A DNA stretch of 46,986 nucleotides from the NCBI GenBank assembly GCA_016926395.1, contig JAFGOT010000031.1, positions 1 to 46,986 of the forward strand, given 5' to 3'. The stretch comes from Candidatus Woesearchaeota archaeon (lineage in GTDB: Archaea > Nanobdellota > Nanobdellia > Woesearchaeales > SKGA01). Position numbers and translations under genes: made by a program. How positions within the stretch are numbered: position 1 is the first letter of the stretch; each line of letters begins with the position of its first letter. This document shows, one piece after another, positions 1-27,720 of the stretch. Below the pieces are notes generated by a model that made no database searches, was not told the origin of the DNA, and saw only the letters and a list, made by a program, of their open reading frames with translations.

Positions 1-1662
1 ATGACTGGTTGTCATGGTTTTTGTGAACAAGGACCTATTGTTGTAATCAAACCAGAAAATATTTTTTATACAAAAGTAAAACCTGAGGATTGTGGTGATA
101 TTTTAAATGGTGTTGAATCAGGTGTTCCAGTCAACAGACTTCTTTTTAGAGAGGCACAACCAATAGATGGATCATCAGTTAACTCACCTCAAATTCAAAC
201 TCATGTTAAAGAAGTTGACTTCTACAAATTTCAGACAAGATACTTGCTTCGTCGAACAGGAGAAATTGATCCGTTTAATATTCATGATTTTCTAATGTTC
301 GGTGGGTTTCAAGGATTGCACAATGCTCTTGAGATGAAACCGCAAGAAGTTATTCAAACAGTTCTTGATAGTGGTCTTCGTGGCCGTGGTGGAGCTGGTT
401 TTCTAACAGGAAAAAAATGGTCTTTTTTGGCTAATGCAAAAGATGATGTAAAATTTTTAGTTGTAAATGCTGATGAAGGTGACCCTGGATCATTTATGGA
501 CCGAACATTAATGGAGGGTGATCCATTCTCATTAATTGAAGGTTTGCTAATTGCATCATATGCAACAGGTGCAAAGCAAGGTTATATTTATGTTCGAGCA
601 GAATATCCTGAAGCAGTTAATGTTTTAAAACATGTAATAAAAACTTGTTATGATAAAAATTATTTAGGTAAAAATATTCTTGGAAGAAAAGGATTTGATT
701 TTGATCTTGCTTTATTCTTAGGAGCTGGTGCTTTTGTATGTGGCGAAGAGACTGCTTTACTTAATAGTATTGAAGGCAAGCGTGGCATGCCAAGATTCAA
801 ACCTCCCTTTCCTGCACAAAAAGGTTTATTTGGAAAACCAACAAATATTAACAATGTTAAAACTTATGCTTATTCATCTCACATTCTTAGAGAAGGTCCT
901 GAATCTTTCAAAAAATATGGAAAAGAAGATTGTCCTGGAACTGCTGTTCTTTCTTTGACTGGAAAAGTCAATAATACTGGTATTGTTGAAGTACCTATGG
1001 GAACTAGCCTTCATGATTTGGTTTTCAAAATTGGTGATGGTGTTAAAGGCGGGAAAAAAGTTAAAGCTGTTCTTACTGGAGGACCATCTGGCGGTGCTAT
1101 TCCTGCTGACAAATTAGATATTGGTGTTGACTTTGATTCATTAAATAAAGCTGGAACTATTATGGGTTCTGGTGGGGTAATGGTTGTTGATGAAACGGAC
1201 TCCATGGTTGAGTTGGCGGATTTTTTTGTTCAATTTTCCATGTCTGAAAGTTGTGGTAAATGTGTTCCTTGTCGTGAAGGAACTTTGCGTATGCATGAAA
1301 TACTAAAAAAGATTCTTGATGGTAAAGGTGAAGAATCCGATCTTGATCTTTTAGAAAGACTTGCAAGTTATATGAAAAATACAGCTCTTTGTGGTCTTGG
1401 ACAAACTGCGCCTAATCCTGTTCTCTCAACTTTAAAACATTTCAAGAATGAGTATCTTGATCTGATTAATAATAAGCATAAAGTAAAATATTTCATAACT
1501 GATAGGTGTGTTGGTTGTCATATTTGTGCGAAAAATTGTCCAGTTCAATGTATATCTGGTAAACCTAAAGAACATCACGTAATTAACCAAGACAAATGTA
1601 TAAAATGTGGTAAGTGTTTTGAAGTTTGTCCAATAAAAGCAATAGATAGGTTGGTGGAATAA
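1..1662 (+). CDS. hydB: NuoF/HydB-like NADH-binding diaphorase subunit of a multimeric [FeFe]-hydrogenase (probably 5'-truncated by the window edge)
   Basis: Tail of a thioredoxin-like [2Fe-2S] domain (GCHGFCEQGP), FMN/NADH motifs SGLRGRGGAGF, NADEGDPG and GAGAFVCGEETAL, SLBB GGPSGG, [4Fe-4S] motif ESCGKCVPCREG...LCGLG, and a C-terminal 2x[4Fe-4S] domain. Its stop overlaps the hydA ATG (TAATG). Confidence 0.92.
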   Translation: MTGCHGFCEQGPIVVIKPENIFYTKVKPEDCGDILNGVESGVPVNRLLFREAQPIDGSSVNSPQIQTHVKEVDFYKFQTRYLLRRTGEIDPFNIHDFLMFGGFQGLHNALEMKPQEVIQTVLDSGLRGRGGAGFLTGKKWSFLANAKDDVKFLVVNADEGDPGSFMDRTLMEGDPFSLIEGLLIASYATGAKQGYIYVRAEYPEAVNVLKHVIKTCYDKNYLGKNILGRKGFDFDLALFLGAGAFVCGEETALLNSIEGKRGMPRFKPPFPAQKGLFGKPTNINNVKTYAYSSHILREGPESFKKYGKEDCPGTAVLSLTGKVNNTGIVEVPMGTSLHDLVFKIGDGVKGGKKVKAVLTGGPSGGAIPADKLDIGVDFDSLNKAGTIMGSGGVMVVDETDSMVELADFFVQFSMSESCGKCVPCREGTLRMHEILKKILDGKGEESDLDLLERLASYMKNTALCGLGQTAPNPVLSTLKHFKNEYLDLINNKHKVKYFITDRCVGCHICAKNCPVQCISGKPKEHHVINQDKCIKCGKCFEVCPIKAIDRLVE

Positions 1663-3380
1663 TGACAAAGAAAGTAACAATCACAGTTGATGGACAAAAA
1701 ATAAAAGCCAACGAAGGAGATAATTTGCTTGTTGTTTGTAAAAAGAATAATATTAACATTCCTCATCTTTGCTATTATGAAAGACTTCTTCCACAGGGAA
1801 GATGTAGATTGTGTGTTGTTGAAATTGAAGGTGGAAGAAAGCCTGTAACTTCTTGTACTACAACTGTTACTGATGGTATGGTTGTTAAAACTCATAGTAA
1901 AACTCTTCTTGAATCAAGAAAATTAAGCATGGAGCTAATTCTTGCGAATCATGATCGTAATTGTACTAGTTGTGTAAATAATCTGCATTGTAAACTTCAA
2001 AATTATGCTGATTCTCTTGGTGTTGAAGAGCAAGTATTTGGTGGCGGTCATCGAAAAGAATTTGATTTGGATTTTTCAAGTCATTCAATTGTTCGGGATA
2101 ATAACAAATGCATTTTATGTGGTAGGTGTTATAATGTTTGTAATGATCTGCAAACTGTTTATGCAATTGGACTCCAAGGTCGTGGTCATGGTTCATATGT
2201 TGCGCCTCCATTAAAACAAAATATGATGGAAAGTAATTGTGTTAATTGTGGTCAATGCGTGATTGCTTGTCCTACAGGTGCGTTATATGAAAAAAGAGAA
2301 CTGCAGCCTGTTATTGATGCATTAAATTCTGGTAAACATGTTATTGCTCAGACAGCTCCTTCTATTCGAGCTGCTCTTGGAGAATCTTTTGGAATGAAAC
2401 CAGGAACTCCTGTGACTGGGAAAATGGTTGCTGCTCTTCGTCGTCTTGGTTTTACAAAAGTTTTTGATACGGATTTAGCAGCTGACATGACTATTATTGA
2501 GGAAGCAACAGAGTTTGTTAAACGTTTCAAAGCAAAAAAGAATCTTCCTATGATTACTACTTGTTGTCCTGCGTGGGTTAAATTTGGTGAACAATTTTTC
2601 TTCGAACAACTTAATCACATGTCTAGTTGTCGTAGTCCTCAAGCTATGATGGCAAGTCTTATTAAAACTTATTATGCTAAGAAAAATAAAATTAATCCTA
2701 AAGATATAATTGTTGTTGACATAATGCCTTGTACTGCTAAGAAATTTGAAATAAGAAGACCTGAATTCGCAGGAGAAGCAGATTATGTTTTAACAACCGT
2801 TGAACTTGCAAAATTAATCAAATTATTTAATATTGATTTCTTAGATTTACCTGACGAAGAATTTGACAATCCATTAGGTAAAAGCACTGGTGCTGGAGAT
2901 ATTTTTGGTCGAAGCGGTGGTGTTATGGAAGCTGCTCTTCGTAGTGCAGCCGACATGTTAACTGGTAAAAATTTACAACACGTAGATTATCATGCTATTC
3001 GAGGTCTTGAAACTTGCAAAGAAGCAGAGCTTGAGCTTGCTGGTGAAAAAATTAAAATCGCTGTAGTTCACACTCTTGGTGAAGCAAGAAAAATAATGGA
3101 AGACATTCGAGCTGGTGAATCTCCTTATCATTTTATTGAAATAATGGCTTGTTATGGTGGTTGTATTGGTGGTGGTGGTCAACCTAGAGTTGATGATATT
3201 GATGAAGTTTTGCCTAAACGTGCTGCTGCTCTTAACAAAGAAGATAAAAGTAAAAAAATTAGAAAATCACATAAAAACCCTTATGCTCTAAAAATTTATA
3301 AAGACTTTATTGGAGAACCAGGCGGCAAGAACGCACATAAATTATTGCACACAAAATACACAAAAAGAGAGCATTTATAA
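1662..3380 (+). CDS. hydA: [FeFe]-hydrogenase catalytic subunit (group A, HydA)
   Basis: H-cluster motifs L1 TTCCPAW, L2 MPCTAKKFE and L3 EIMACYGGCIGGGGQP. N-terminal [2Fe-2S], His-ligated [4Fe-4S] (HDRNCTSC) and 2x[4Fe-4S]. C-terminal small-subunit-like RKSHKNP...AHKLLHT. Confidence 0.96.
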   Translation: MTKKVTITVDGQKIKANEGDNLLVVCKKNNINIPHLCYYERLLPQGRCRLCVVEIEGGRKPVTSCTTTVTDGMVVKTHSKTLLESRKLSMELILANHDRNCTSCVNNLHCKLQNYADSLGVEEQVFGGGHRKEFDLDFSSHSIVRDNNKCILCGRCYNVCNDLQTVYAIGLQGRGHGSYVAPPLKQNMMESNCVNCGQCVIACPTGALYEKRELQPVIDALNSGKHVIAQTAPSIRAALGESFGMKPGTPVTGKMVAALRRLGFTKVFDTDLAADMTIIEEATEFVKRFKAKKNLPMITTCCPAWVKFGEQFFFEQLNHMSSCRSPQAMMASLIKTYYAKKNKINPKDIIVVDIMPCTAKKFEIRRPEFAGEADYVLTTVELAKLIKLFNIDFLDLPDEEFDNPLGKSTGAGDIFGRSGGVMEAALRSAADMLTGKNLQHVDYHAIRGLETCKEAELELAGEKIKIAVVHTLGEARKIMEDIRAGESPYHFIEIMACYGGCIGGGGQPRVDDIDEVLPKRAAALNKEDKSKKIRKSHKNPYALKIYKDFIGEPGGKNAHKLLHTKYTKREHL

Positions 3381-3404
3381 TTCTCTTTGTAAGTTTCTTA
3401 ATTT

Positions 3405-4604
3405 ATGAAGAACAAATTATGGACTAAAGATTTTTCGCTGTTATTTTCTGGTGCTTTGGTTTCTGGTTTGGGTTCTTATGCTACTTCTGTTGCTTTAGGT
3501 TTTTTCTTATTGGATTTAACTGGTTCAACTTCTTTGATGGCAACTCTTCTTTCTATTGATTTTTTGGTTTTTGCTTTAGTCCTGCCTTTTGGTGGTTTGT
3601 TCGCAGATTTTTTTCAAAGAAACAAGTTAATGTTTTTTGCTGATATTATTAGGGGTGTTGTCGTTTTACTATTTGCATTTTTAGTTTTTAGAAATATTGT
3701 TCCTATTTGGTTTGTGGTTATAACAGTAATTTTTATTGGTTCAGGTCGAGGATTGATGAACCCAACTGTTAATTCATATACTCCAGATATTGTCAAGAAA
3801 AATAACTTACGAAGAGCAAATAGTTTCATGATGCTTTCTGATTCTGCTTCAAGTATTTTTGGCAGAGGAATTGGTGGTTTTTTATTGCAAACTTTTGGAG
3901 CTCCATTGCTATTCTTTTTTGATGGTTTAACTTATTTATTCTCCGGTATTTCTGAGTTATTTATTTCTGAGAAACGAGCGAAGAAAAAAATTAATCCAAA
4001 AAAATCTTTTTCTATGATTGCTCAAGGATTTTCTTATTTACTAAAGCACAGGTCTGCACTTCTTTTTGTAATCTTTGCAGGTGTTTCAAACTTATTTAAT
4101 GCAGTTGCTGCCATAACTTTTATTCCTTTTTTTGATTCTTATTTTTCTGCAAGTTTTTATGGTTTGTTTTTAGCTTTTTTTGGAATAGCCTATATTGTTG
4201 GAACGTTTATTGCAAGTTATATTCCAAAGAAATATTCGAAATCTAGTTTTATCTTTTCTATTTCATTTTGGCCTTTGGCTGCAGGTGCGGCTTTCTTTTT
4301 TCATTCCTTTATATCAATTTCACTTATTTATGCTATTGCTGGTTTGTTTAATGGTATTAGTAATAATTTTTTACGTTCCATTTTTCAAGTACTGGGTCCT
4401 AAAGAATTACGTGCACGAGTAAATGCTTCCGCCATGCTTTTTATTAGAATCTCCTGGCCTGTTGGAATTTTTATTGGTGGTTTGTTATCTTCTGTATTTT
4501 CATTTGCTTTTGTTATTGCAGGATCTTATTTTGTTGGTGCTTTTGTTACTATTCTATTCATTTTGTTTACTTCCATGGTTTCTGTTCTAAAAGTCTTAGA
4601 TTGA
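3405..4604 (+). CDS. MFS transporter (DHA3/macrolide-efflux-like)
   Basis: About 12 hydrophobic segments; motif A-like GGLFADFFQRNKLM; typical N-terminus LWTKDFSLLF. Confidence 0.85.
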   Translation: MKNKLWTKDFSLLFSGALVSGLGSYATSVALGFFLLDLTGSTSLMATLLSIDFLVFALVLPFGGLFADFFQRNKLMFFADIIRGVVVLLFAFLVFRNIVPIWFVVITVIFIGSGRGLMNPTVNSYTPDIVKKNNLRRANSFMMLSDSASSIFGRGIGGFLLQTFGAPLLFFFDGLTYLFSGISELFISEKRAKKKINPKKSFSMIAQGFSYLLKHRSALLFVIFAGVSNLFNAVAAITFIPFFDSYFSASFYGLFLAFFGIAYIVGTFIASYIPKKYSKSSFIFSISFWPLAAGAAFFFHSFISISLIYAIAGLFNGISNNFLRSIFQVLGPKELRARVNASAMLFIRISWPVGIFIGGLLSSVFSFAFVIAGSYFVGAFVTILFILFTSMVSVLKVLD

Positions 4605-5709: not shown

Positions 5710-6849
5710 ATGAATATCTTAGTAATTAATAGTGGAAGTTCATCTTTAAAGTTTCAATTAATTAACCCTGCTACTGAAGAAGTTATTACCAAAGGCGGTG
5801 TTGATGGCATTGGTCTTGAAATTTGTAAGGTTAAAATTGACGGCACAGAAGATGTTATTTTTTTAGAAAATCATAAAGCAGCATTAAATTATGTTCTTGA
5901 AAGAATTGATAAGTCTCAAATAGAAGCGGTTGGTCATCGTGTTGTTCATGGTGGTGAATATTATTCTTCTCCTGCTATTGTTGACGAAACTTTAATTAAA
6001 CGTGTTACTGAGTTAAGTGAGCTTGCTCCTCTTCATAATCCTGCTAATATTCAAGGCATTATTGCTTGTCAAGAAGTTTTGCCAGGTGTTAAACAAGTTG
6101 CAGTTTTTGATACTGCCTATCATCAGACTATTCCTCCCAAGGCTTACATGTATGGTATTCCTTATGAGTATTATGAGCGTCACAAGATAAGAAAATATGG
6201 TTTTCATGGAACAAGTCATAAATATATTATGCAAAAAACAAGAGATCTTTTAAATAAAGATCCTATCACGATGATTTCTTGTCACATTGGTAATGGTTCA
6301 AGTATTGCTGCAATAAAAGATAATCTTTCTGTCGATACTTCTATGGGCTTCACTCCTTTACCTGGTATTGTTATGGGTACTAGATGTGGTGATATTGACC
6401 CTGAGATTGTTTCTTATTTAGAAACTAAAGAAGGTCTTAGTCCAAATAGTGTAAAAAATATTTTGAATACAAAAAGCGGTCTTCTTGGAGTTAGTGGTAG
6501 TTCTGATATGAGAATTATTTATCAACGAGCTGAAGAAGGAGATTTTAGAGCAAAATTGGCAATTGATATTTTGGCTTATGATATCGCAAAATACGTTGCT
6601 GCTTATGCTGGAATTTTGGGTCCTGTTGATGCAATTACTTTCACTGCGGGTCTTGGAGAGAATGCATTTTATCTAAGAGAAAAGGTTATTCATTATTTTA
6701 ATACTCGAGATGTTAGTCTTGATGTTGAACGTAATAAAAGAAATGAAACTGTGATTTCAACACTTGATTCGGTTACTAAAGTTCTTGTTATTCCAACAAA
6801 TGAAGAATTAATGATTGCTAAAGAAACGGCTAATGTATTGACACATTAG
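5710..6849 (+). CDS. ackA: acetate kinase
   Basis: ILVINSGSSSLKF, GHRVVHGG, LAPLHNP, DTAYH, YGFHGTSH, DTSMGFTPL, IPTNEELMIA. ATG at 5710 follows GAGG. Confidence 0.97.
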   Translation: MNILVINSGSSSLKFQLINPATEEVITKGGVDGIGLEICKVKIDGTEDVIFLENHKAALNYVLERIDKSQIEAVGHRVVHGGEYYSSPAIVDETLIKRVTELSELAPLHNPANIQGIIACQEVLPGVKQVAVFDTAYHQTIPPKAYMYGIPYEYYERHKIRKYGFHGTSHKYIMQKTRDLLNKDPITMISCHIGNGSSIAAIKDNLSVDTSMGFTPLPGIVMGTRCGDIDPEIVSYLETKEGLSPNSVKNILNTKSGLLGVSGSSDMRIIYQRAEEGDFRAKLAIDILAYDIAKYVAAYAGILGPVDAITFTAGLGENAFYLREKVIHYFNTRDVSLDVERNKRNETVISTLDSVTKVLVIPTNEELMIAKETANVLTH

Positions 6850-6854
6850 TTTTT

Positions 6855-7628
6855 TTATTTTCCTTCTATTTTTTTCAAAAGGCAAAAATCATACACGTCT
6901 TTTTCTATATTATATTGTTCTATGTTATGTATGTATGATGTTTCTATAATTTCTCTTAAATTATTCAGATTGTCTTTTGGATGGTAACTTGTTCCGCCTT
7001 TTATTATTTGATTTCTTAAAAACTCAAAAACCGGATTAATTCCAATGTTAAGTTTATTTGATTTCGAAATTATTTTTCCAAATTTATTTTCAAGTAATGG
7101 CCAGAAAGATTCAACATTTACGGTGTCTTCGGGTTTTATTTCTATTTTCGCTTTTGTTTGTATTTCATCTGCTGTTATTTCCAATTCTGATAATTTTACT
7201 TTGTGTATGTCGTTAATTAGTTTTTCTCTAACTTTTTCTTCTATTCTTGTATATAATTCTGGTTGATGTCTGGTAAATGTCATTAAGAAAATATTTTTTT
7301 GCTCATATAATCCATCTTGAATTATTTGAATAATGTTTGCATGGTGTCCTTTTGAAACATGATACCCCTAGTCAAATTTATTTTTAATCATCTTTCCTAT
7401 GCTGTTTCCATATGCTACTTTAAACTCTGTAAATGGTATTGTTTCAACTAATATGTCTGCATCAATTGTTGGTCTTAGAAGGTCTTGGAATTGGCTTAAT
7501 GCGTAAATTTGAACTGCTAAACCTCCTACTATTGCATAGTTTTCACTGGTTTGTTTGATTTCTTCTTCGTGTTTTGCTAGTGTAAACAGTGCTGTTTTAG
7601 CTATTTTCGATTTAATATTTGCAACCAA
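6855..7628 (-). pseudogene. nucleotidyltransferase-like gene interrupted by one in-frame TAG at 7368-7370 (readthrough, pseudogene or sequencing error)
   Basis: ORFs 7368..7628 and 6855..7283 share a frame, and the gap is open after the TAG (GYHVSKGHHANIIQIIQDGLYEQKNIFL-M). N-terminal YAIVGGLAV...RPTIDADIL is a GG...RxTxDxD NTase motif, and C-terminal HPKD matches the usual family end. TATA box TTTATAAA at 7653-7660. Confidence 0.7.
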
Positions 7629-7755
7629 AGTAGTCTTCTTATTGTTGTTTGATTTATAAACATTTCCTTTATGTTACTACTTCATAGTGCTCTATTTTTA
7701 AATAGGCAGAATAGTTTTATTTAAAAATGGTCCTTGATTGTCTTTATTAATCTTT

Positions 7756-7837
7756 GCCAAAGTCGCATAATCCGGTATTGCGCCAGTCTCGAAAACTGGT
7801 TCCTTTGGAATTCCCGGTTCAAATCCGGGCTTTGGCG
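7756..7837 (+). tRNA. tRNA-Ser(CGA)
   Basis: Acceptor GCCAAAG/CTTTGGC plus G73, anticodon arm CCAGT-CTCGAAA-ACTGG, long variable arm TTCC-TTT-GGAA, T arm CCCGG-TTCAAAT-CCGGG. No encoded CCA. Confidence 0.95.
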
Positions 7838-7930
7838 CTTTTTGTATTTCTCTAGCATCATTCTCAATTTAATCAGAAAAGTGACAAGATTGGTTTGTGC
7901 CAATCATTTTCAAAGAAAATTATTGTGTCA

Positions 7931-7951
7931 CAAATCCGGGCTTTGGCGCCA
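7931..7951 (+). repeat. direct repeat of the tRNA-Ser 3' end, ending in CCA
   Basis: CAAATCCGGGCTTTGGCGC (19 bp) at 7931-7949 is identical to 7820-7838, and this copy reads ...GGCG-CCA. Confidence 0.93.
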
Positions 7952-8019
7952 TTTACAACCTCTATTGAAAACCTTTATAAAAGAAATATTGATTCTTCTA
8001 ACTACTGAATTTATTCTAT

Positions 8020-8148
8020 GCGGGAGTAGTTCAGCCTGGTTAGATCGCCACGCTCATAAATGCTTGTTGAGCGATGAGACGTAATTGTCAATGATTATCA
8101 ACATGTGGTGCACCGTGGAAGTCCGGAGTTCAAATCTCCGCTCCCGCA
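8020..8148 (+). tRNA. tRNA with CAT anticodon (probably elongator Met), intron about 8059-8112
   Basis: Acceptor GCGGGAG/CTCCCGC plus A, anticodon stem CCACG/CGTGG with loop CTCATA interrupted by about 54 nt at position 37/38, T arm CGGAG-TTCAAAT-CTCCG. It lacks the initiator GGG/CCC pairs. TTTATAAA at 7974-7981. Confidence 0.88.
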
Positions 8149-8150
8149 CT

Positions 8151-8561
8151 TTATTCTAGTGCTTTTATTATCTTCTCAGCTGATAGAATCCGTTCTTCTT
8201 CAGGAATATCATATTGTTTCCAATGTTTTATTCCATCGTTTTCATATCTGGGAATTATGTGAATGTGGGTGTGAAATATTACTTGTCCTGCTTCTGGTTT
8301 TGTATTGACAATTATATTGAATCCTTTAGCATCAAGGCCCTTCATACATGCAGTTCCTATTTTTTGTATAACTTCAAGAGTTGAGCATCCCAGTTCTTTA
8401 TTCATGCTTAGTATGTCTTCTGAGTGTTCTTTAGGAATTATTACTGTGTGTCCTTTGTTTGCGGGTTTTAGGTCTTCAAATGCAACAAATTTATTGTCCT
8501 CATACACTTTAATTGAGGGAATTTCGCCTTTTATGATTTTACAAAATATGCAGTTTTCCAT
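8151..8561 (-). CDS. HIT family nucleotide hydrolase
   Basis: CIFCKII, GHTVIIPK.H, AGQVIFHTHIHIIPR histidine triad. GGGGT SD-like site upstream. Confidence 0.95.
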   Translation of the reverse strand: MENCIFCKIIKGEIPSIKVYEDNKFVAFEDLKPANKGHTVIIPKEHSEDILSMNKELGCSTLEVIQKIGTACMKGLDAKGFNIIVNTKPEAGQVIFHTHIHIIPRYENDGIKHWKQYDIPEEERILSAEKIIKALE

Positions 8562-8647
8562 GTTTTTTACCCCTTAAATCTATTATATTAACGTGTCGAA
8601 GTCACTACTTAGTGACGAAATGTTTATAAATATGATTTTCCCTCCTT

Positions 8648-9316
8648 ATGTGTATGAACGTACCCAAGTTAAGTTCCGATTTATTATTTTCTGTTGATTC
8701 TGTTGTTAAGTGGGTTGAAGAAGTTATTCCAAGAACGCGTCTTGATAGAGATGGAATTCTTAAAATGGGAAATTTATCTGTTTCGCAGTTGCATGACTTT
8801 GGTAAAACTCATTATATGGGTGCTTGTGTTGATCCTGTCTTTCTTGCAATGTATGCTTTATCACAAAATGCTGTTAATGGTAATTACAAATCTAATTTAG
8901 TCTTAGAAATTCTTTTACATAAACCTAAAACTGAAGCTGTAAAACAAGATAAATATAATAATCCTCAACCACACGTTGCTTTAGAATTTTTGTTTGAAAA
9001 TGAAGTTTATTCTCTTGACTTTGCTTCTAGAAATTTGGTTGTTCTAAAAAAAGGTTATTATTCAACCAACCAACCTGATCAAGTGACTTCTTTAAACGTT
9101 CACCGAATTAATGGTTTAAATTTTGATAAATCTTTTATTGAGAATATTTCTCCAAAAGCTCATGCGTTAGGTGTTCCTTTTGATGCAAACCGTTATTTGC
9201 ATATTTTAGCGGACCTTAATGAAGAACCTCATGGTAGTGTTAATTTTGAACGTTTCAAAAATGAAGTTGGGGGAAAAATCAAATACGAATTGAATTATAA
9301 TTCTTTATCTAATTAG
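8648..9316 (+). CDS. hypothetical protein, transglutaminase-like Cys-His-Asp fold suspected
   Basis: GACVD...PHVALEF...YSLDF spacing resembles the transglutaminase-like triad. TATA box at 8623-8630. Confidence 0.55.
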   Translation: MCMNVPKLSSDLLFSVDSVVKWVEEVIPRTRLDRDGILKMGNLSVSQLHDFGKTHYMGACVDPVFLAMYALSQNAVNGNYKSNLVLEILLHKPKTEAVKQDKYNNPQPHVALEFLFENEVYSLDFASRNLVVLKKGYYSTNQPDQVTSLNVHRINGLNFDKSFIENISPKAHALGVPFDANRYLHILADLNEEPHGSVNFERFKNEVGGKIKYELNYNSLSN

Positions 9317-9345
9317 ATATATTTATTAAGTGTATTTCTTGATTT

Positions 9346-10218
9346 TTGTTTATGAGTTGGGTTTTGTTTGCTTTATTATCTGCTATGTTTTTTTCTCTTA
9401 GAGATATTTTGTCAAAACATATGTTAAAACGACATGACTCTATAGTTATTTTGTTTAATGCTGCATTTTTAGTTACTTTGCTTACTGCAATCATTTTTTA
9501 TAATTCTATTTCGTTTGTCCTTCCTGGAAAAATTCTTGGAGTTCTCTTTGTCAAGTCTGTTCTTGTTGCACTTGGTTGGTATTTTTTACTTGAAGCGTAT
9601 AAACATCTTGACATTTCAACTGCTGCTCCTCTTCTAAATTTGAGTTCAATAATTTTACTTGTTTTGGGAATTGTTTTTTTAGGCGAAACCTTAGATGGTT
9701 TGCAAGTTGTTGGTTTTATTGTATTAATATTAGGTGCTTATGCTTTGGAGTTAAAATCATTAAATAATTTTTGGGAACCTATTTCCCTTTTCAAGCAAAA
9801 ATCTGTTATTTTTATTTTTCTATCTCTTTTAAGTTTAAGTTTCAGTGCAGTTCTTGACAAAATTTTGTCCTGGCAAATTCTTCCTCAAACAATTATTTTT
9901 TACAATGGATTTGTAATTGCCCTAATTGCTTTCATTGTTATTTTGGCTAAACGAGACATTCCTGACTTTGTCTCTGTATTGCGTGAATCTCCTTGGCATG
10001 TTCTTTTTATGGGGGTTGCTAATATACTAAGTGATGTGACTTATTTTTTAGCTGTGGTAACTCCTGGTGCATTAATTACCTTAATTATTCCTCTAAAAAG
10101 ATTATCGACTGTATTTACAACTATGGCGGGTGGTCATTTGTTTAAAGAAGAAAGAATTTTTTACAAAGGAGTTATTAGTTTATTTATGGTTGGTGGTGTA
10201 TTGCTTTTAGTACTTTAG
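9346..10218 (+). CDS. EamA/DMT family transporter
   Basis: Ten hydrophobic helices in two repeats; W..FALLSA, AYKHLDISTAAPL, LGE.L, FKEE. The start may be the ATG at 9352. Confidence 0.9.
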   Translation: MFMSWVLFALLSAMFFSLRDILSKHMLKRHDSIVILFNAAFLVTLLTAIIFYNSISFVLPGKILGVLFVKSVLVALGWYFLLEAYKHLDISTAAPLLNLSSIILLVLGIVFLGETLDGLQVVGFIVLILGAYALELKSLNNFWEPISLFKQKSVIFIFLSLLSLSFSAVLDKILSWQILPQTIIFYNGFVIALIAFIVILAKRDIPDFVSVLRESPWHVLFMGVANILSDVTYFLAVVTPGALITLIIPLKRLSTVFTTMAGGHLFKEERIFYKGVISLFMVGGVLLLVL

Positions 10219-11502
10219 AAATTTTGTTATTAGTTCCTTATGATTTACTTCTGGGTGGAATTGGACGCCAAACCAGTTTGGTTTATTTGTGAATTCAATT
10301 GCTGCAATACCTTCTTTAGTTGCAAGTGTTGCTTTTATTTCTTTAATGTTTGGGGGAATTGATCGAACACCATTTTGATGCAAGAAATAACATTCTTTTC
10401 CATCAAAGCCTTCTGTAAATTCTGATTCGTTTAATTCTTCAACAACAACGGGACCGATTTCAGTAAATGAATCAAGTTCGATTTCGTTTTCTTCAGTAAA
10501 TATCATTAGTTCCATTCCCGCACAAATACCGAGAATTTTTTTATCATTTGTTAATATTTTTTTAATTTTATTTTTATATTCTAAAAATTTATTATCTTGA
10601 TATGCTGTACCTGTAATTATTATTTTTGATTGAGCTTCAGTTCCATCAATCTCACTTACTTGTTTTATTGTGTATGTTATGCCTTCATTTTTTATTATGT
10701 TGGTTATTGGTCTAATAAATTCTAATTCATATAATTTTAGTTTAGAATCAATCGTGCTTATTATTAAAACATCTTCGCCATTATTTTTTATTTTTTTATG
10801 CTGGTACTCTTTCTCATTTTTTTCTTTTTCAATAAATTCTGCTTTTTTTATGTCGTAAGTTCCTGAGTAGTTTTCATACTCTATTTCTGATTCCAAAACG
10901 TTGATTCTTTTTTTGAATAGAGGGCAGTCAAGAACCATTGTTTCTATTTCTCCTCCCTCGCCTGCTGGATTGATTTGAAATTTTTTATTATATTCAACTA
11001 ATTTAGAAATTGTTTCTTTGTTAATTTTTTTACCAAGCCATTCTTTTTCAAACGGATATGCAAACACTCCACCAATTATAACTTCAAAACCATTTTCTAT
11101 TAATTCATTTAATAATTCAACTTGATCTTGTTGCCATAATGGATTAAAACAATATAAATCTAATTCACTACAAATTTTTTGTACTCGACTTGCTTGGTAT
11201 TGACTTCCAACAGCTCCTGTAACAACTCCTTTTATGTTGTATTTTTCTTTGGCTTCTTTTATTGCATCAACCAATTCCTCTAATTCTTTTTCTTTCTCAC
11301 CTTCTGTTATTCTAGTGATTAAAGGTAAGTTCATCGATTCTGCTTGCAATGATACTAAGTTTATATTCGGAGTGTGATACATGTAGCTTTCTTTATTTTT
11401 TGATTTAATTGTTATTGCACAAACTACTTTATCTGTTTGATTTGCGAGGTATGTTGCATAGATGGAATCTTTTCCTCCACTAAGTAAAATAGCAAGTTTC
11501 AT
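10207..11502 (-). CDS. dph6: diphthine--ammonia ligase (Dph6) fused to a C-terminal class I glutamine amidotransferase domain
   Basis: PP-loop LLSGGKDS, ESYMYHTPN, GAVGSQYQ, PLWQ, INPAGEGGEIETMVLDCPLF, then a domain with LGICAGME and GVQFHPE. ATG at 11502 preferred. Confidence 0.9.
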   Translation of the reverse strand: MKLAILLSGGKDSIYATYLANQTDKVVCAITIKSKNKESYMYHTPNINLVSLQAESMNLPLITRITEGEKEKELEELVDAIKEAKEKYNIKGVVTGAVGSQYQASRVQKICSELDLYCFNPLWQQDQVELLNELIENGFEVIIGGVFAYPFEKEWLGKKINKETISKLVEYNKKFQINPAGEGGEIETMVLDCPLFKKRINVLESEIEYENYSGTYDIKKAEFIEKEKNEKEYQHKKIKNNGEDVLIISTIDSKLKLYELEFIRPITNIIKNEGITYTIKQVSEIDGTEAQSKIIITGTAYQDNKFLEYKNKIKKILTNDKKILGICAGMELMIFTEENEIELDSFTEIGPVVVEELNESEFTEGFDGKECYFLHQNGVRSIPPNIKEIKATLATKEGIAAIEFTNKPNWFGVQFHPEVNHKELITKFLKY

Positions 11503-11612
11503 TTTTCTTTTTTTTAAACTGAACATTGATTAAGTTCAATGCTTCATATTTTTTTTCTAAAACCTTTATTTATTTATAAATGTGGCTTTTAAAACCCTCT
11601 AACAAGCGAAAT

Positions 11613-11620
11613 CTTTAAAT
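11613..11620 (+). promoter_or_regulatory. TATA box (with upstream BRE-like CGAAA) of the histone gene
   Basis: CGAAATCTTTAAAT lies about 25 nt upstream of a leader containing a GCGCGTA-GA-TACGCGT hairpin and the SD GAGGTG (11672-11677). Confidence 0.55.
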
Positions 11621-11683
11621 AAGCTACCTCTCTAAGTCTATGTATAAACAGCGCGTAGATACGCGTTTTGTGAGGTGTATATT

Positions 11684-11854
11684 ATGGCAGACCTATTAGT
11701 AGTAAAAGCAAAAATTAAAGATGTTATTGGCGATTATAATGTTGCTGGGGATTTCGCAGAAGAACTAGATAAAATTGTTCGAGAAAATGTTGCTAAAGCT
11801 GTAAAAAGAGCTGAAGCTAACGGCCGAAGAACAGTAATGGCTAAAGATCTCTAA
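11684..11854 (+). CDS. small histone-fold protein (DUF1931 / face-to-face-type prokaryotic histone), 56 aa, absent from the ORF track
   Basis: Translated by hand: MADLLVVKAKIKDVIGDYNVAGDFAEELDKIVRENVAKAVKRAEANGRRTVMAKDL. It has the histone-fold RA..NGRRTV...DL end, a strong SD and a terminator. Confidence 0.92.
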   Translation: MADLLVVKAKIKDVIGDYNVAGDFAEELDKIVRENVAKAVKRAEANGRRTVMAKDL

Positions 11855-11895
11855 GACCTATAGTTAGGTCTATTTTTATTTTTTATTTTGTTTTA
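11854..11895 (+). terminator. hairpin plus T-rich terminator
   Basis: AGACCTA-TAGT-TAGGTCT followed by ATTTTTATTTTTTATTTTG. Confidence 0.7.
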
Positions 11896-12230
11896 CATAA
11901 CATTTCTATCTTCAATTTCTAATTAAAGTTCAGTTTGTTCTTACTTTGCCTTGTAGTTCTTAGTTGTTCTTTTATTTTCAAAAAATTGTTTTTGTAACTT
12001 CATTTTTTTTGTAATTGTCTTTGCTTATTGGTGATTGCTGTTTGCTAAAAACTTCTTAACAATAACTTTTTTTACTCGCACTTTTTTATGTTTTTTACCT
12101 TCAACTATATTCTACAATGTATTAATGCGAAGAATATATTTTGCATTGTAATAGTGTTTATATATGTGAATTTCCAAAGTTAGATTAGTTGTGAAAAGTG
12201 TCGTAAGACGACGCGTGTGGTGTGAAAAAA

Positions 12231-12314
12231 ATGACTCAAATAAGCTATAATGCAAAATCAAAAAGTAAATCTTTAAACTCTTTTTTTAGTGACGAAGAGG
12301 AGTTCGAAGAATAA
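12231..12314 (+). CDS. putative 27-aa small protein with acidic C-terminus
   Basis: MTQISYNAKSKSKSLNSFFSDEEEFEE. It is preceded by a GGTGTGA SD-like site, a leader hairpin and TTTATATA (12157-12164), and followed by the inverted repeat GAAGATGC...GCATCTTC. Confidence 0.5.
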   Translation: MTQISYNAKSKSKSLNSFFSDEEEFEE

Positions 12315-12480
12315 TTATTTTCCTTGAAGATGCTTTTTACTTCTTCGGTTAAATGGCATCTTCTCCCCTCTCTTTCTTTAATAAATTCATTTTAACTTGT
12401 TTCTACGAATAATCCTTAGCAAAGCTTTAAAAGGGTTAGTTGGTTTTTGTCTAATATAATAATTAACAAGAGTTGATATT

Positions 12481-13044
12481 ATGGCTGAAAACGTAGAAAA
12501 TGGAAATTTAGTACAAGTACATTACACTGGCACTTTTGATGATGGAACTGTTTTTGATTCCTCTGATGGTAAAGATCCTCTTGAAGTTCTAGCAGGAACT
12601 GGAATGTTAATCAAGGGTTTTGATGATGCTTTAATTGGTATGAAAGATGGTGAAGAAAAAGAAATTACTATCGCACCAGCTGATGCATATGGTGAACCAA
12701 ATGATATGTTGATTCAAAAAATTCCTCGATCAGAATTGAGTGATGAGATTACTCCTGAAGTTGGCATGGTTCTTGGTGTTAAAGCACCTACTGGTCAAGT
12801 GTTTCCCGCAACTATTACTGAAGTAACTGATGCAGAGATTGTTCTTGATGCTAATCATCCTTTAGCAGGCAAAACATTACATTTCAAACTGTCTATGGTT
12901 TCTCACCGAGAACCTACTGAAGAGGATATGGCCAAATTTGCACCTCAAGGACATTCTTGTGGTGATGGTGATTCTTGTGGTTGTGAAGAAGGAGATTCTT
13001 GTGGCGATTCTTGTGGTTGTGGACACGACCATGATCATGAGTAA
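12481..13044 (+). CDS. slyD: FKBP-type peptidyl-prolyl isomerase, SlyD-like, with Cys/His-rich tail
   Basis: VHYTGTFDDGTVFDSS, LIKGFDDAL, PADAYG, LDANHPLAGKTLHF; tail HSCGDGDSCGCEEGDSCGDSCGCGHDHDHE. Confidence 0.93.
   Translation: MAENVENGNLVQVHYTGTFDDGTVFDSSDGKDPLEVLAGTGMLIKGFDDALIGMKDGEEKEITIAPADAYGEPNDMLIQKIPRSELSDEITPEVGMVLGVKAPTGQVFPATITEVTDAEIVLDANHPLAGKTLHFKLSMVSHREPTEEDMAKFAPQGHSCGDGDSCGCEEGDSCGDSCGCGHDHDHE
12953..13016 (+). repeat. four copies of ATTCTTGTGG encoding (H/D)SCG units in the SlyD tail
   Basis: Copies start at 12953, 12971, 12995 and 13007. Confidence 0.85.
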
Positions 13045-13082
13045 ATTTTTTTCTTTATTTTTTTCTTTTAAGTGTGAATAAT

Positions 13083-13442
13083 ATGACTCAACTTGTTGCA
13101 ATTCTTGGAACTGGAAAAGGCTCTTGGGCTCACGTTTCTAAACTTGTGCGTCAAGGAGAGTTTGAAGAAGTTGTTCTTATCACGAATAATTTTGGTAAAG
13201 AAAAATTTTCTCTTGATGCTGATACTTCATTTATCGTGGTTGATTTTGAACAGCCAATTCATGTTCTTTTAGACACTTTCTTAAAAGAATTAAGACCTAA
13301 ACTTAAAGGGACTGAAGTTGCTTTAAATATGGTTAGTGGTTCAGGTAATGAACACATGGCCTTACTTTCTGCCCTGTTAAAATTAGGGATGGCGATTCGT
13401 CTTGTTGTTGCGGGTACCGCAAACCAATTTGATGAACTTTAG
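13083..13442 (+). CDS. hypothetical protein, small Rossmann/CARF-like alpha/beta domain
   Basis: LVAILGTGKGSW at the N-terminus and VALNMVSGSGNEHMALLSA resemble CARF motifs I and II. ATG at 13083. Confidence 0.6.
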   Translation: MTQLVAILGTGKGSWAHVSKLVRQGEFEEVVLITNNFGKEKFSLDADTSFIVVDFEQPIHVLLDTFLKELRPKLKGTEVALNMVSGSGNEHMALLSALLKLGMAIRLVVAGTANQFDEL

Positions 13443-13541
13443 ATTCACTTCTTATTTTAGTGAATTCTTATTTTTTCAAAACTTTTTTATTATTTTCTTC
13501 TTCTAGATTTCTGTAGTGACTAAAAAAAGCAAACAAGTTTC

Positions 13542-15464
13542 TTGTCTCTTGGTGATTTTTTTAATCCCTTATATTATAACACTGTGCGTCATTTTTCTTT
13601 ATTTTCAGCAGGAACAATTGCTGGTTTTCTATCAACTGGTTCTTTAGCTTCAGGAATAAGTGTTGGTTTATCTTCTTATATTATGAGTCTTAGTATGGGT
13701 CCCTCAAAAAAAGCAGTTCAACATTTTTATGATAAACATATTAATCAAAATAAACATCCCAATTTTAAAGTTCCAAAGAGAAAGTTTTCTTCAAAATCTT
13801 TAACTTATGGTTCTTTATTCGCTGCTGCAGGGATTTTAGGTGGTTCTATTGTTCATCCTACTTTTTTTAATATTATAAAAGAATCTGGTTTAAATTTTTC
13901 TTCCTTAGATTCTGATCAGATTATTGCACTTAAAGAATTTGGAAAGATTGCTTTAACAACTACACCAATACTTTTCTCTACTGGTTTATTTTTTGGAGAT
14001 TCTCTGAATTATATAAAATCAGAAATTTCTTTTGATAAATTAGTAAAATCAACTCTTTCTTTAAACCCTGATAAGAGGTTAGAACTTATTATTTCAAATG
14101 TGGATAATAATGTTGCAGGCTCGTCATCGCATTTAATTTCTGAATTATATAATCAAGGAAGGGCGAATGAAGCTTTAAGTTACTTTTTAGAATATTCTGT
14201 TATACAAAATAGCTTTGATTCAAAAATATCAAATCCTTTAGCGTTAGCCACTCCTTTAATTCTAGATGGTAAAAAATTTCCTTTAAAATTTTGTTTAGCT
14301 AATGCTATAAGTGAATCTTTGCCTGTTGAATATGTTGATGGTTTGGTTGAAAAAATAATTGATGAATCAATTCAAAAAGAAGACACTCCTGCTCTTGCAT
14401 TATCTGGTTTTTATTTAGAAAATAAAAAAGATATTACTTCTCAAAAAGTTTGGGAAGAAGTTGGATTGCAGTTAAGTCAAAACAAAAACTTAGAAAGTAA
14501 GTTATTCGCCAAGGGGACGTCTCAAATAGAATCTATTAATTTGTCCGGAAATAATGTTGATATTATTAAATCAACCCTTCTTAGAAAAATACGACCTCTT
14601 AATGATGCGTCTTTATCTGACGCGCAGGATGAAAAAATTCTAAACAACACAGCCTATTCTAAATTTATTTCTGATTCCTCTCTTGATATTCCTTTACTTT
14701 TATACACTGGAAAATTAAACAATTCAGTTTATTCTTTACTCAGACTCAATCGATCTTCTTCTCTTTTTGAAGTTGCTAAAACTAATCCTAATTTATTTAA
14801 TGATATTTTAGTTGGTTTAGAAACTCAAACAAAAAAGATAAATTCTGTTTATGAGGACGCTTTTCTTTCAAAAGAAATTGTCTTTAGCGAAATTGATTAT
14901 TCAAATAGATTTAATCGTCAAGAAAATACTTTTGGAAAAGATAAATTTAGTATTTATTTAGCAAAAAAACTTCTTGAAAGAATAGAATTAACTGCGCATG
15001 ATGTTGATTTTTTGAAACCTTCTATTGATAATCTTCCAGAGCAGTGGTTATATGATAAAGAAAAAGGGGTCTTTTCTAGATTAGATTTCGAAAATAAGGG
15101 AAGACGGCGTTCAATGGAGGATCGAGTTAATTCTTCTTTATGGGTTTAGGGGTCTTTCCCCAATAATTTGTTGTTAGATTCTTTTGCGTTTCAAATAAAT
15201 GAATTTTGTGAACAAACTAATGTTGATGTTGATTTAGCGTCGAAATACTTTTTAGATGTTTTATTTGAACGAAGAAATCATTTAGTTAATACTTGGATAA
15301 ATAGGAAATCATCCTCGATATTTATTCCTTATCTTCTAAATGTTGCCGATTTAGCAAGTTCTTCATTAGGTAAATTTGTTGATGACAAATCTTATCTTTC
15401 CTCTCAAAGACAACAATCTAATGACTTGTATGCTCTCTTTAACGCTCGAAAAAACAGAAATTAG
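13542..15464 (+). pseudogene. membrane-anchored protein with a kinase/phosphotransferase-like C-terminal region, interrupted by one in-frame TAG at 15147-15149
   Basis: ORFs 13542..15149 and 15168..15464 share a frame, separated only by TAG-GGG-TCT-TTC-CCC-AAT-AAT. N-terminal hydrophobic Gly-rich helices; DNLPEQW...LDFE resembles the APH/kinase catalytic and Mg-binding motifs. Confidence 0.55.
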
Positions 15465-15533
15465 CCTCTAGTATGGATTTTACTACAAAAAGTATGGTAA
15501 AGTATAAAAAGCGCAATTGTTTTAGAGCTTTAT

Positions 15534-16939: not shown

Positions 16940-18025
16940 TTATTCCAAGAATGCTGGTATTATTTTGGGGTTTTTAAGAACTCCTTTTTCCAATAAGAGA
17001 AGATGTTGTATGCCTATTTTTCCTGCATATAATTTTTTTAAATCTCCACCTTCTTTTACGAATTTTCTAATTTTACAAAGTCCTTGAAAGTAAGCATGGT
17101 CTTTTAAGAATCCGCCTGGTTTTTTGGTGTCTCCAAGTCCTCGTTTTATACGCACGCACATTTTGAATGTTTTTTCATCGCCTTCCTCATCTTCTTCGAA
17201 ATATGGTCTGATGCTGTTATATATATCCATGAAGCTTCCTTTTGATGCAACGCTTGTCATTAGAACATTTCTAGCTAGTCTTTTTATTATATGTGGGTTT
17301 GAAACTCCTTGTTGTTCTTCATTATAGCTGGCTAATCCTTCTTCTGTTGATAGGTAATTTGGAAGTCCTGTGCTAAATATTTTGTATTCTTGTTGTCTTC
17401 CATTTTCTGACCGAAGAGCATGCGTTCCTATTTCGTGTATTATTAATTTCTGAACATGACTTTCTGAAAAATATGTTTCATCTCTTATTGTTATTTTCTT
17501 TTTTCCACCATTCACATTAACTGTCGAACTTGCATTTTTGTTATAATTTATTTTCCAATCATTAAGTCCATATTTTTCTAGTTCCTGTCTTAATTTATTT
17601 CCTAGTTCTTGTGAGCTAATCTCTTTTTCGCTTTCTTCTACTTCTTCTATCTCTTTATCTAATGTTTCTTTAGCTTTATCTAACGTTTCTTCATCGATTG
17701 GTTCAAACAAGTGTTCAGTATGAAATTTATCTGTTCCAATATTATCAAATTGTTCTGCAAATGAGAGAAGGTAATCTTTTATTTCACAAAAAAGTTTTCC
17801 TATTTCACTGTCATTTTCTATTTTTAATTTTTTCAAATCCTCAATTTTATTTTTAACATTATATTCCTTATATTTTAGTTGAGGGTTATAATTACAATCT
17901 TTTTTTACAAATAGTTCATATTCTTCATTGGTATTTATTGGTGTTATATGTGAGTAGTCTTCAAACTCTGATCTTATTCTTGTTAACACTTCATCGATTT
18001 CTTTTAGTTCTTCTTTAGAATTCAT
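16940..18025 (-). CDS. DUF1704 / MATCAP-like gluzincin metallopeptidase
   Basis: HEIGTH (HExxxH), LRSENG, TEEGLA, RIKRG, FLKDHAYFQG, LYAGKI. Confidence 0.85.
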   Translation of the reverse strand: MNSKEELKEIDEVLTRIRSEFEDYSHITPINTNEEYELFVKKDCNYNPQLKYKEYNVKNKIEDLKKLKIENDSEIGKLFCEIKDYLLSFAEQFDNIGTDKFHTEHLFEPIDEETLDKAKETLDKEIEEVEESEKEISSQELGNKLRQELEKYGLNDWKINYNKNASSTVNVNGGKKKITIRDETYFSESHVQKLIIHEIGTHALRSENGRQQEYKIFSTGLPNYLSTEEGLASYNEEQQGVSNPHIIKRLARNVLMTSVASKGSFMDIYNSIRPYFEEDEEGDEKTFKMCVRIKRGLGDTKKPGGFLKDHAYFQGLCKIRKFVKEGGDLKKLYAGKIGIQHLLLLEKGVLKNPKIIPAFLE

Positions 18026-23478: not shown

Positions 23479-24600
23479 CTATTCAGCCGGGTATCTTAAA
23501 ATTGCGGCTATTTTACCCATGTCTCGAAGTTGCACTCCTTCTCGGGTTTCAACGCTAATAATTTCTAACTCAGAATTTAATTTTTCAGCTTCTTTTTCTA
23601 GGAATTCTATTTTCTCATCATCCATTGCTTCACTCACAAGAATTACTTCCACAGCCCCTATTTGTGTTAAACGCAAGACATCATCGTATCCATATGTTAC
23701 TTTGTTTGATTCTTTTGATAACATTTCAAAAAATCTTTGCATTAATTTTTTCTCTTGCATAACTTCTTCTTCTGCTAGTATGTCTTCAGATTTCTCAACT
23801 AGTTCTTGAAGTCCAAAATCTCCTGTGTATGAAAGATCTTTAATTCCAATAATTTTTCTTTTTAATTGATCAGTAATATAATTTCCTTCAGCAAAGTCAA
23901 ATTTTGTATGCCCTGGTCCACCTATTATTATTCCTTGTATTGCTGTTTGATTTTCAAGAAATTCTTCTGTCATAGTTTGGGCGATTCTCTTGTAGAATTC
24001 AATTGCAGCTCCTTCTCTTAATCTTTCAAAACGTTGAGCGGATTGCCCTCCTGTTTTGTGTTTTCCAGGTACTGCACTATGCATATCTTTAATCGGGATG
24101 ATTGTCTTACCTTTTAGAATTGCAACGTCTCCTTCTCTTTTATCCATAACTACCAATCCAAAAATAATTTTATCATCAATTATTTCTTTTATAGGTTCTG
24201 TTACGAATTCTTTGTCACAACGATAAAGGTTTTGCTTTAATGGTATTGGCGGTTCAAGACCCCATACTCTATAATCTTGTTGGCCTTCTCTTTCAGCAGC
24301 GTTTCCTGCAAAAGCAACTAATCCGTTTTTTGGAGTAGATTTGAATGTTTTTAGGTATTGAACCATTTTTTCAAGGCTTGCTATGACGTTGTCTCTTGTA
24401 GATTTACTTTTGATGTTTGTTGCAGTTCCTTGTTCTTGTTGTAGTTGTTGGATTTTGCCGTTTATATCGTAGCCTGCAGGAATGTATACACTAATTAATT
24501 CTGTGTGTCGGCCTTTAATAGATTCCACTTCTTTTAGAAAATGTTTTATGTGGTACTTATCTTTGGCACTGATTCTTTGTAGTTTATCTCCTTCAGCCAT
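23479..24600 (-). CDS. prf1: peptide chain release factor aRF1
   Basis: HTELISVYIP, TATNIKS, YRCDKEF, GGQSAQRFER, GGPG, IAAILRY. TATA box at 24624-24631. Confidence 0.97.
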   Translation of the reverse strand: MAEGDKLQRISAKDKYHIKHFLKEVESIKGRHTELISVYIPAGYDINGKIQQLQQEQGTATNIKSKSTRDNVIASLEKMVQYLKTFKSTPKNGLVAFAGNAAEREGQQDYRVWGLEPPIPLKQNLYRCDKEFVTEPIKEIIDDKIIFGLVVMDKREGDVAILKGKTIIPIKDMHSAVPGKHKTGGQSAQRFERLREGAAIEFYKRIAQTMTEEFLENQTAIQGIIIGGPGHTKFDFAEGNYITDQLKRKIIGIKDLSYTGDFGLQELVEKSEDILAEEEVMQEKKLMQRFFEMLSKESNKVTYGYDDVLRLTQIGAVEVILVSEAMDDEKIEFLEKEAEKLNSELEIISVETREGVQLRDMGKIAAILRYPAE

Positions 24601-27528: not shown

Positions 27529-27720
27529 GTGTACTTTTTGATTCCAAGCGAAAAAGAATTTCTGGACTTTCTGAGGAAAAATCCTCATCAAACTTACACT
27601 TCTCTCTCTAAAAGATTCTCGATAGAAATGGGAACTGTTCGAGATTTGGTAAAAATGTACTCTTCTAAAATTGATGTAATAAAAATTGGAACTGCACTAA
27701 TGGTGGATGTAAAACAATGA
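27529..27720 (+). CDS. small winged-HTH protein coupled to the giant surface protein gene
   Basis: 63 aa; LDFLRKNPHQTYTSLSKRFSIEMGTVRDLV HTH pattern; AGGTG SD; ATGA overlap with the next gene. Confidence 0.65.
   Translation: MYFLIPSEKEFLDFLRKNPHQTYTSLSKRFSIEMGTVRDLVKMYSSKIDVIKIGTALMVDVKQ

Follow-up and report, generated by a model that had tools for sequence, protein, structure and literature searches.

Putative nonsense lesions: in-frame amber codons in an AbiEii/MenT-like nucleotidyltransferase gene and other accessory genes of a Woesearchaeota archaeon

We analyzed a stretch of 46,986 nucleotides (the window) from a Candidatus Woesearchaeota archaeon, and in particular a nucleotidyltransferase gene within it that is divided by a single in-frame amber codon. 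The window is contig JAFGOT010000031.1 of a 40-contig assembly that comprises 1,016,835 bases, with 32% guanine plus cytosine (GC) and an estimated completeness of 82.5%. On its minus strand, positions 6855–7628 hold one reading frame of 257 codons plus a terminal stop (gene 1), interrupted only by a TAG at codon 87 (7368–7370) in the context GAC TAG GGG TAT (7373–7362). The N-terminal 86 codons (7371–7628) begin with TTG and carry the catalytic motifs GG and RPTIDAD. Past the TAG, 170 codons are open (6855–7367); by structure model and alignment they include core strands 89–119 and residues K182, K243, D244 and D247, and their first in-frame start is ATG 7283. A TATA-box-like element, TTTATAAA (7653–7660, minus strand), was read 24 bases before the TTG and may serve as an archaeal promoter. 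Translation table 11 splits gene 1 into an 86-codon open reading frame (ORF; 7628–7368, TTG start) and a 142-codon ORF (7283–6855, ATG start). A preliminary description of this DNA had claimed both the 257-codon frame with one internal TAG and the TATA box; the frame is correct to the base, and TTTATAAA lies at 7660–7653 as described.

The same description had pointed to a second gene broken within the sequence TAGGGGT, and this gene was also found. On the plus strand, a frame of 641 positions (13542–15464, gene 2) encodes a membrane-associated protein without a known family (neither Pfam nor PADLOC gave a match) and is interrupted at codon 536 by TAG (15147–15149) in the context GTT TAG GGG TCT, which places the two TAGGGGT contexts 7.8 kb apart. 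Two homologues of 628 and 624 residues, with 68% and 44% identity, span the stop with strong conservation on both sides. The upstream piece of gene 2 comprises 535 of the 640 residues, and a downstream in-frame start is present at TTG 15168. The TAG of gene 2 lies at the base of a short hairpin with a perfect stem, GGGG-TCTTT-CCCC (15149–15161), and a T-to-G change in a Tyr codon TAT would create both the stop and the perfect stem, as is possible for a quasi-palindrome-templated mutation. Such templating was rejected as a common cause of both stops, since the 70%-complementary inverted repeat at the gene 1 site would template TAA and not TAG.

Read support for these positions was checked in Logan contigs of two public runs (X1 and X2; two samples of one study), which come from another assembler and are not raw reads, and in which minority alleles are hidden. 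Of the sampled words of 6800–15500, 99% were present in the two runs. An X1 contig (4,680 nt, depth 19.8) spans 6800–7825 and an X2 contig (9,552 nt, depth 10.1) spans 6800–7827, each with no differences, and a second X1 contig (5,153 nt, depth 17.5) covers 13280–15500, including the TAG of gene 2, again with no differences. The two runs are possibly the source reads of the assembly and therefore may not be independent of it. The platform recorded for one run of this study is Illumina, on which run-length errors are rare. These results indicate that the TAG at 7370–7368 is a real base-level feature of the population, and a simple assembly slip is unlikely. From the metatranscriptome run of the study, a 154-nt contig matched positions 13975–14128 exactly, in the upstream part of gene 2; DNA carry-over is possible, and this contig is no evidence on expression.

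The nucleotidyltransferase identity that had been proposed for gene 1 was borne out by a profile search, a structure model and fold matches. The gene 1 protein matched no Pfam family above threshold. Scans of the protein and of its halves gave no match to PF08843 (AbiEii nucleotidyltransferase toxin) at E up to 1, three close homologues gave none at E up to 0.1, no PADLOC model matched the protein, and its best PDB sequence had an E of 0.24. A word-indexed search returned three homologues (41–51% identity) plus the window's own piece, and a profile search of 1.84 billion representatives returned 60 proteins with E-values of 0.001 or less, among which 15 had 1e-30 or less. Homologues judged complete (222–253 residues) are single chains and align with gene 1 end to end. 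In a 52-member alignment G35, G36, R52, D56, D58, K182 and D247 are invariant, and Q40, T54 (49 of 52), F69, K243 and D244 are nearly so. The gene 1 protein thus contains the Pol-beta nucleotidyltransferase motif, GG or GS followed by DxD on the next strand, whose G35, G36, D56 and D58 occur in 52 of 52 members. Scanned singly, 15 of the 52 members matched PF08843 (best E 7.9e-07), four matched DUF6036 and one NTP_transf_5; PF08843 membership of the gene 1 protein itself would be transitive only. Among the motifs that the preliminary description had placed on either side of the stop, GG and RPTIDAD (R52, T54, D56, D58) were confirmed, and HPKD proved not to be conserved, the conserved residues past the stop being K182, K243, D244 and D247.

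An AlphaFold model built with the 52-sequence alignment reached a predicted local distance difference test (pLDDT) score of 95.7 and a predicted template modelling score of 0.92; it replaced a first model from six sequences, which was useless (pLDDT 49.5). The top Foldseek folds for this model were nucleotidyltransferases, namely 5uvd (E 2.4e-05), JHP933 (4ok0, 4o8s), MenT3/TglT (6j7n) and MenT1 (8an5), all with a probability of 1.00 and with template modelling (TM) scores of only 0.33–0.52. In the model, codon 87 sits between helix 66–85 and strand 89–93, within the catalytic domain. A product of 86 residues would be without three core strands and without K182, K243, D244 and D247 and should be inactive, and the ORF from ATG 7283 would miss strands 89–93 and 97–105 and part of strand 111–119. 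Because the break falls inside the catalytic core, gene 1 would be either dead or read through, and a working split form is unlikely.

Taken together, sequence and model suggest that the gene 1 product is a distant stand-alone relative of the AbiEii/MenT-type nucleotidyltransferases (DUF1814, PF08843), which belong to type IV toxin-antitoxin systems and include MenT3/TglT and MenT1. It shares with them the Pol-beta-type core with GG ... RxTxDxD and a C-terminal helical part with a conserved K and KD..D. Unlike them, it stays below the Pfam threshold, its TM-scores are 0.33–0.52, and no AbiEi-type gene adjoins it. An AbiEi-type partner was absent next to gene 1 in the window and next to its homologues in two loci from Woesearchaeota metagenome-assembled genomes. 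In these two loci the homologue stands alone among housekeeping genes (ribosomal protein, UvrB, UvrA and arginyl-tRNA-synthetase-like, as named by reading ORF translations without a family scan).

We aligned the homologues across the stop codons and found sense codons at both sites, a result that the preliminary description had listed as part of what would speak against its interpretation. At the gene 1 site the first three homologues all have Leu, coded as TTA GGC, TTA GGT and TTA GGC in the three loci for which DNA was available. The 52-member alignment shows Y 34, L 8, F 4, I 2 and V 1 at this site, among the ten closest relatives L occurs in eight and I and V in one each, and none of the 51 aligned relatives has a stop. 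At the gene 2 site both homologues have Tyr and neither has a stop; a change from Tyr (TAY) to TAG is one step, as judged from homologue protein and not DNA. Two further TAG-cut genes, described below, have homologues with open frames in a genome of the same genus (G003), with Ser aligned at both sites in weak alignments, and at these sites their own neighbouring repeat units have Glu and Phe. Since the aligned residues (Leu, Tyr, Ser, Glu, Phe) differ across the TAG sites, no single amino acid meaning fits. An intron of the bulge-helix-bulge type at the stop sites was also rejected, since the homologues have no extra residues.

To see how TAG is used elsewhere, we counted the ends of crude ORFs of at least 90 codons (n = 922) and found TAA at 564, TAG at 195 and TGA at 163. 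TAG ends 21% of these ORFs and is therefore not reassigned. The base after TAG at the 195 ends was A in 78, T in 70, G in 34 and C in 13, and GGG followed in only two, which are the two cases in the window. The TAG terminators of ackA, aRF1, a helicase, DJ-1 and Lrp had been described as followed by A or T and not by GGG; of these, the one of ackA was read here, and TAG is followed by T. The genome has 207 stops that are flanked on both sides by 60 or more open codons, and the only TAG-GGG cases among them were those of genes 1 and 2. Both TAG-GGG occurrences at ORF ends are followed by a continuing frame; with about 0.8 such ends expected (195 x 0.16^3, our own estimate), two observed cases give no power to a test for enrichment of continued frames after TAG-GGG.

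A search for a tRNA with a CUA anticodon and for pyl genes, as proposed in the earlier work, was likewise carried out. No CUA tRNA was found by aragorn with introns, without introns or at a lowered threshold, nor by the Rfam tRNA model (25 matches over the cut-off and 29 with an E of 10 or less); scanning for anticodon arms with CUA gave two matches, neither of them tRNA-like. A low-threshold aragorn call of tRNA-Stop(tta) on contig C10 was discarded as a false positive, with a poor cloverleaf, a position within a 293-residue ORF and no Rfam match. PylS (23.2 bits, cut-off 178) and PylD (20.4 bits, cut-off 150) gave sub-threshold cross-matches only; pylB and pylC were not searched. Dedicated decoding machinery is thus absent from the assembly as searched, and at 82.5% completeness its absence from the organism is not proven. 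In particular, no contig yielded a tRNA-Tyr or a tRNA-Ala, so that the tRNA set is incomplete and a suppressor could be among the missing tRNAs. The class I release factor aRF1, which would compete with any readthrough, is encoded within the window (23479–24600, minus strand; eRF1_1, eRF1_2 and eRF1_3 domains). No other protein of the assembly matches eRF1_2, and the sequence shows the usual aRF1 motifs NIKS, YRCDKEF (YxCxxxF-like) and GGQ. Stimulatory RNA structure was not detected, the 123 nt from each of four TAGs folding no better than shuffles (z = 0.07, -0.85, -1.60 and +1.78). Backup stops were not enriched after TAG: a further stop within three codons followed 36 of 194 TAG, 93 of 559 TAA and 39 of 162 TGA ends (Fisher P = 0.92). 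Re-initiation from the SD-like (Shine-Dalgarno-like) sequences AGGGG or AGGA was rejected, because the nearby ATGs are out of frame, and reading of the downstream pieces of both genes showed no SD-like start signal at working distance.

We then screened the genome uniformly for cut genes, requiring a minimum of 40 open codons both before and after the stop, no start codon within six codons, flank codon log-odds above the 25th percentile of the genes, and no ORF of at least 80 codons in another frame over the flanks. The screen yielded three TAGs (the TAG of gene 1, C39:14524 and C30:20537), one TGA (C20:20300) and no TAA. The TAG of gene 2 fails the coding-score filter and is shown by homology. 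At C39:14524 (minus strand; locus positions 764–4063), TAG GAT GAA interrupts a gene for a secreted Cys-rich protein of 1,099 residues with a Mucin2_WxxW domain at 53–135, where 168 codons are open past the TAG before any start and 752 in all; an 838-residue open frame in G003 matches residues 241–517, and the stop marks the exact end of the local tblastn alignment. At C30:20537 (minus strand; locus positions 595–2502), TAG GAT AAT interrupts a kinase-like gene of 635 residues (PF00069) with one 92-codon shadow and weak PADLOC matches of its protein to mad6, Stk2 and PD-T4-6. A 625-residue open frame in G003 matches its residues 16–596. Its C-terminal part recovered one own fragment and no homologue in the 299 other genomes of the order, which leaves the ancestral residue at this TAG uncertain. 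The TGA at C20:20300 (minus strand; locus positions 370–1056) cuts a gene of 228 positions and no known family, whose homologue in another genome of the genus (G001) has sense codons through the aligned position and a conserved IAIEPLG block after the stop. In addition, a DpnI-type restriction gene (PF06044; C19:38998–39530) is frameshifted and split over two reading frames. A frameshift screen (28 rows) gave one weak candidate and missed this DpnI frameshift, so that it is insensitive and its count unreliable. The cut genes are sparsely distributed: gene 1 was found in none of the 60 relatives searched, the kinase-like gene in two of 40 and the TGA-cut gene in one of 40.

A TAA candidate at C7:4790 turned out to be the natural end of a Sua5/YrdC-like gene (named from its translation without a family scan) that is shadowed by a convergent gene, and the grounds for rejecting the remaining TAA candidates were coding score and visual inspection rather than homology. 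When the same screen was applied to genomes of the same genus, no TAG-cut gene was found in 715 kb of G003, 351 kb of G001 or 396 kb of G008; there was one TAA candidate in G001, and one in G003 (C3:54973) is followed by a start codon after six codons, so that two genes probably meet there. These results indicate that TAG-cut genes are not a trait of the genus. On a 3-kb contig of G003 (C19, 568–2257, minus strand) we also observed a long frame broken by TAA, TGA and TAA into stretches of 63, 243, 318 and 183 open codons, which is a decayed gene or a foreign fragment.

On this evidence, the TAGs are probably nonsense lesions that are confined to this lineage and lie in accessory genes which a reduced genome can do without. 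An ordinary nonsense mutation private to the lineage would have inactivated or truncated a dispensable stand-alone nucleotidyltransferase gene; translation from TTG 7628 would stop after 86 residues, and presumably no full-length protein is made. The TAG of gene 2, the two other TAG-cut genes, the TGA-cut gene and the frameshifted DpnI would be lesions of the same kind, all in genes that appear accessory (defence, surface or unknown), and an orphan nucleotidyltransferase of toxin type may be a natural target for inactivation. The lesions are likely to be recent, because no second lesion is seen in any cut gene. Young pseudogenes and amber nonsense alleles of accessory genes, as found in reduced host-dependent genomes and metagenome-assembled genomes, are similar in having a single private stop where relatives have a sense codon, in affecting accessory genes, and in sharing the genome with other broken accessory genes (here the TGA-cut gene and DpnI). 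The cases described here differ from them in the skew to TAG (four of five) and to a following G (four of four) and in the twin TAGGGGT, which random mutation does not predict.

Several observations weigh against this interpretation. The one-step nonsense expectation from the codon usage of the genome is 0.54 for TAA, 0.27 for TGA and 0.19 for TAG, and the stop-cut genes comprise four TAG, one TGA and no TAA; the probability of at least four TAGs out of five is ~0.005 and that of no TAA ~0.02, in tests that are post hoc, rest on five events and count a fourth TAG (15147) that comes from the preliminary description and homology rather than from the screen. G follows all four in-frame TAGs, where first-position G has a frequency of 0.31 (0.31^4 ~0.009). 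Two of the TAGs are followed by GGG-T, although GGG accounts for 1,133 of 17,183 Gly codons (6.6%), and the other two share TTAGGAT. The homologue codon at the gene 1 site, TTA, is two steps from TAG, and only TTG is one step away. Furthermore, each gene carries one lesion with no second stop or frameshift, the family-invariant residues past the stop are all kept, 104–752 codons stay open past the stops in a genome of 32% GC, and the promoter-like box of gene 1 is intact. A single lesion with conserved residues kept fits a very recent lesion as well as it fits readthrough. The TAG-G skew, the twin TAGGGGT and the lack of further decay are left unexplained by ordinary nonsense mutation, and the genome-wide TAG-G skew speaks mildly for readthrough.

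Tolerated or programmed amber readthrough would mean that UAG followed by G (GGG-U or GAU) terminates poorly, or that an unassembled suppressor tRNA reads it, with enough full-length protein made that the amber codon escapes purifying selection or throttles toxin-like and surface genes. To the excess of TAG among the stop-cut genes (against 0.19 expected), the G at position +4 and the paired TAGGGGT and TTAGGAT contexts, this explanation can add that no gene has a second lesion, that conserved residues are intact downstream, that TAG-GGG is never an undoubted terminator (both cases continue), that the tRNA set lacks tRNA-Tyr and tRNA-Ala and could lack a suppressor, and, very weakly, that the RNA-library contig lies inside gene 2. 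We nevertheless regard it as unlikely: the stop is kept in no homologue, the aligned residues differ between sites, neither a suppressor tRNA nor downstream structure nor a backup-stop signal was found, real terminators do not avoid a G after TAG (34 of 195), the aRF1 motifs are canonical, and the TGA-cut and frameshifted genes show plain decay in the same genome. As to the readthrough interpretation put forward earlier, the in-frame TAGs are real and the TAG-G skew, first observed here, weighs slightly in its favour; that the stop is not conserved and that neither a suppressor tRNA nor a stimulatory structure was found counts against it. The more specific proposal, that UAG-GGG-U and UAG-GAU are leaky and that a near-cognate or unassembled suppressor tRNA allows four or more accessory genes with amber codons to yield full-length proteins, seems to us rather unlikely. 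In eukaryotes and their viruses, near-cognate tRNAs read UAG in contexts such as UAG-CAA-UUA of tobacco mosaic virus, or UAG-G plus a pseudoknot in murine leukaemia virus (MuLV). The present sites resemble these in having an in-frame UAG, a defined 3' context and a conserved continuing frame, with G after the stop as in MuLV. They differ in that the stop is not conserved, no downstream structure is found and the host is an archaeon, a domain in which the available text of a review of archaeal recoding gives stop-codon readthrough only for selenocysteine and pyrrolysine (PMC8211752). Searches of the literature for recoding or in-frame stops in DPANN archaea or Woesearchaeota brought up no relevant work.

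Sequencing or assembly error, including the miscalling of TTA-GGG as TAG-GGG by two compensating homopolymer errors, had been offered as an alternative and could draw on the TTA GGC and TTA GGT of the gene 1 homologues, since TTAGGG and TAGGGG differ in two run lengths only, as well as on the modest depth (~10–20) and the possible origin of the assembly from the same runs. We hold it to be very improbable, because separate Logan contigs of two samples from another assembler agree over 6800–7825, the gene 2 homologues have Tyr-Gly, from which no run-length change yields TAG-GGG, random errors would not favour TAG, and run-length errors are rare on the Illumina platform recorded for one run. The pieces might alternatively be functional as they stand, either as a truncated product or as two separately translated polypeptides of a split gene; the in-frame starts at ATG 7283 and TTG 15168 and the 535 of 640 residues kept by the upstream piece of gene 2 would allow this. 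We find this improbable: in gene 1 the break lies inside the nucleotidyltransferase core, ATG 7283 drops strands 89–93, 97–105 and part of 111–119, the complete homologues are single chains, and no SD-like start signal was seen at working distance. Scarcely credible is pyrrolysine insertion or full reassignment of TAG, for which the in-frame TAGs speak and nothing else, and against which stand the missing PylS and PylD matches over the cut-offs, the missing CUA tRNA, the 21% of ORFs that end in TAG and the differing aligned residues. As in methanogens that decode pyrrolysine, UAG lies inside archaeal genes and terminates others; unlike there, pylS, pylD and tRNA-Pyl were not found, none of the genes encodes a methyltransferase, and the stops align with Leu and Tyr.

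Gene 1 is flanked by ackA, which is convergent with it, and by a tRNA-Ser(CGA) gene at 7755–7835. In both DNA runs, a second contig of 82 nt (depth 27 and 12) differs from this tRNA gene at six positions, one of which, C7790G, changes the anticodon to GGA; this contig presumably represents a tRNA-Ser(GGA) gene missing from the assembly, either from the same organism or from a relative. At 180 bases from tRNA-Ser, aragorn placed an intron-containing tRNA-Met (8020–8149, 54-nt intron). Elsewhere in the window we observed a MATCAP-family protein (PF08014) in this archaeon (16940–18025, minus strand) and a surface protein of 2,326 residues with Laminin_G_3 and Ig-like domains (27717–34697, plus strand).

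For annotation, the 86-residue and 142-residue ORFs of gene 1 are best treated as one broken gene. As a by-product, the analysis describes what appears to be a rarely found subfamily of stand-alone AbiEii/MenT-like nucleotidyltransferases in Woesearchaeota, with a confident structure model. If UAG were read through at these sites, Archaea would have a form of amber readthrough that depends on context and not on pyrrolysine, perhaps as a means of keeping toxin-like and surface proteins at a low dose; it would be the first such report in Archaea within the portion of the literature covered here, and it would bear on the sensing of 3' context by aRF1. If the TAGs are plain nonsense lesions, as we favour, the finding would be routine and would show a small symbiont-type archaeon shedding accessory genes, among them the nucleotidyltransferase, a kinase-like protein, surface proteins and DpnI.

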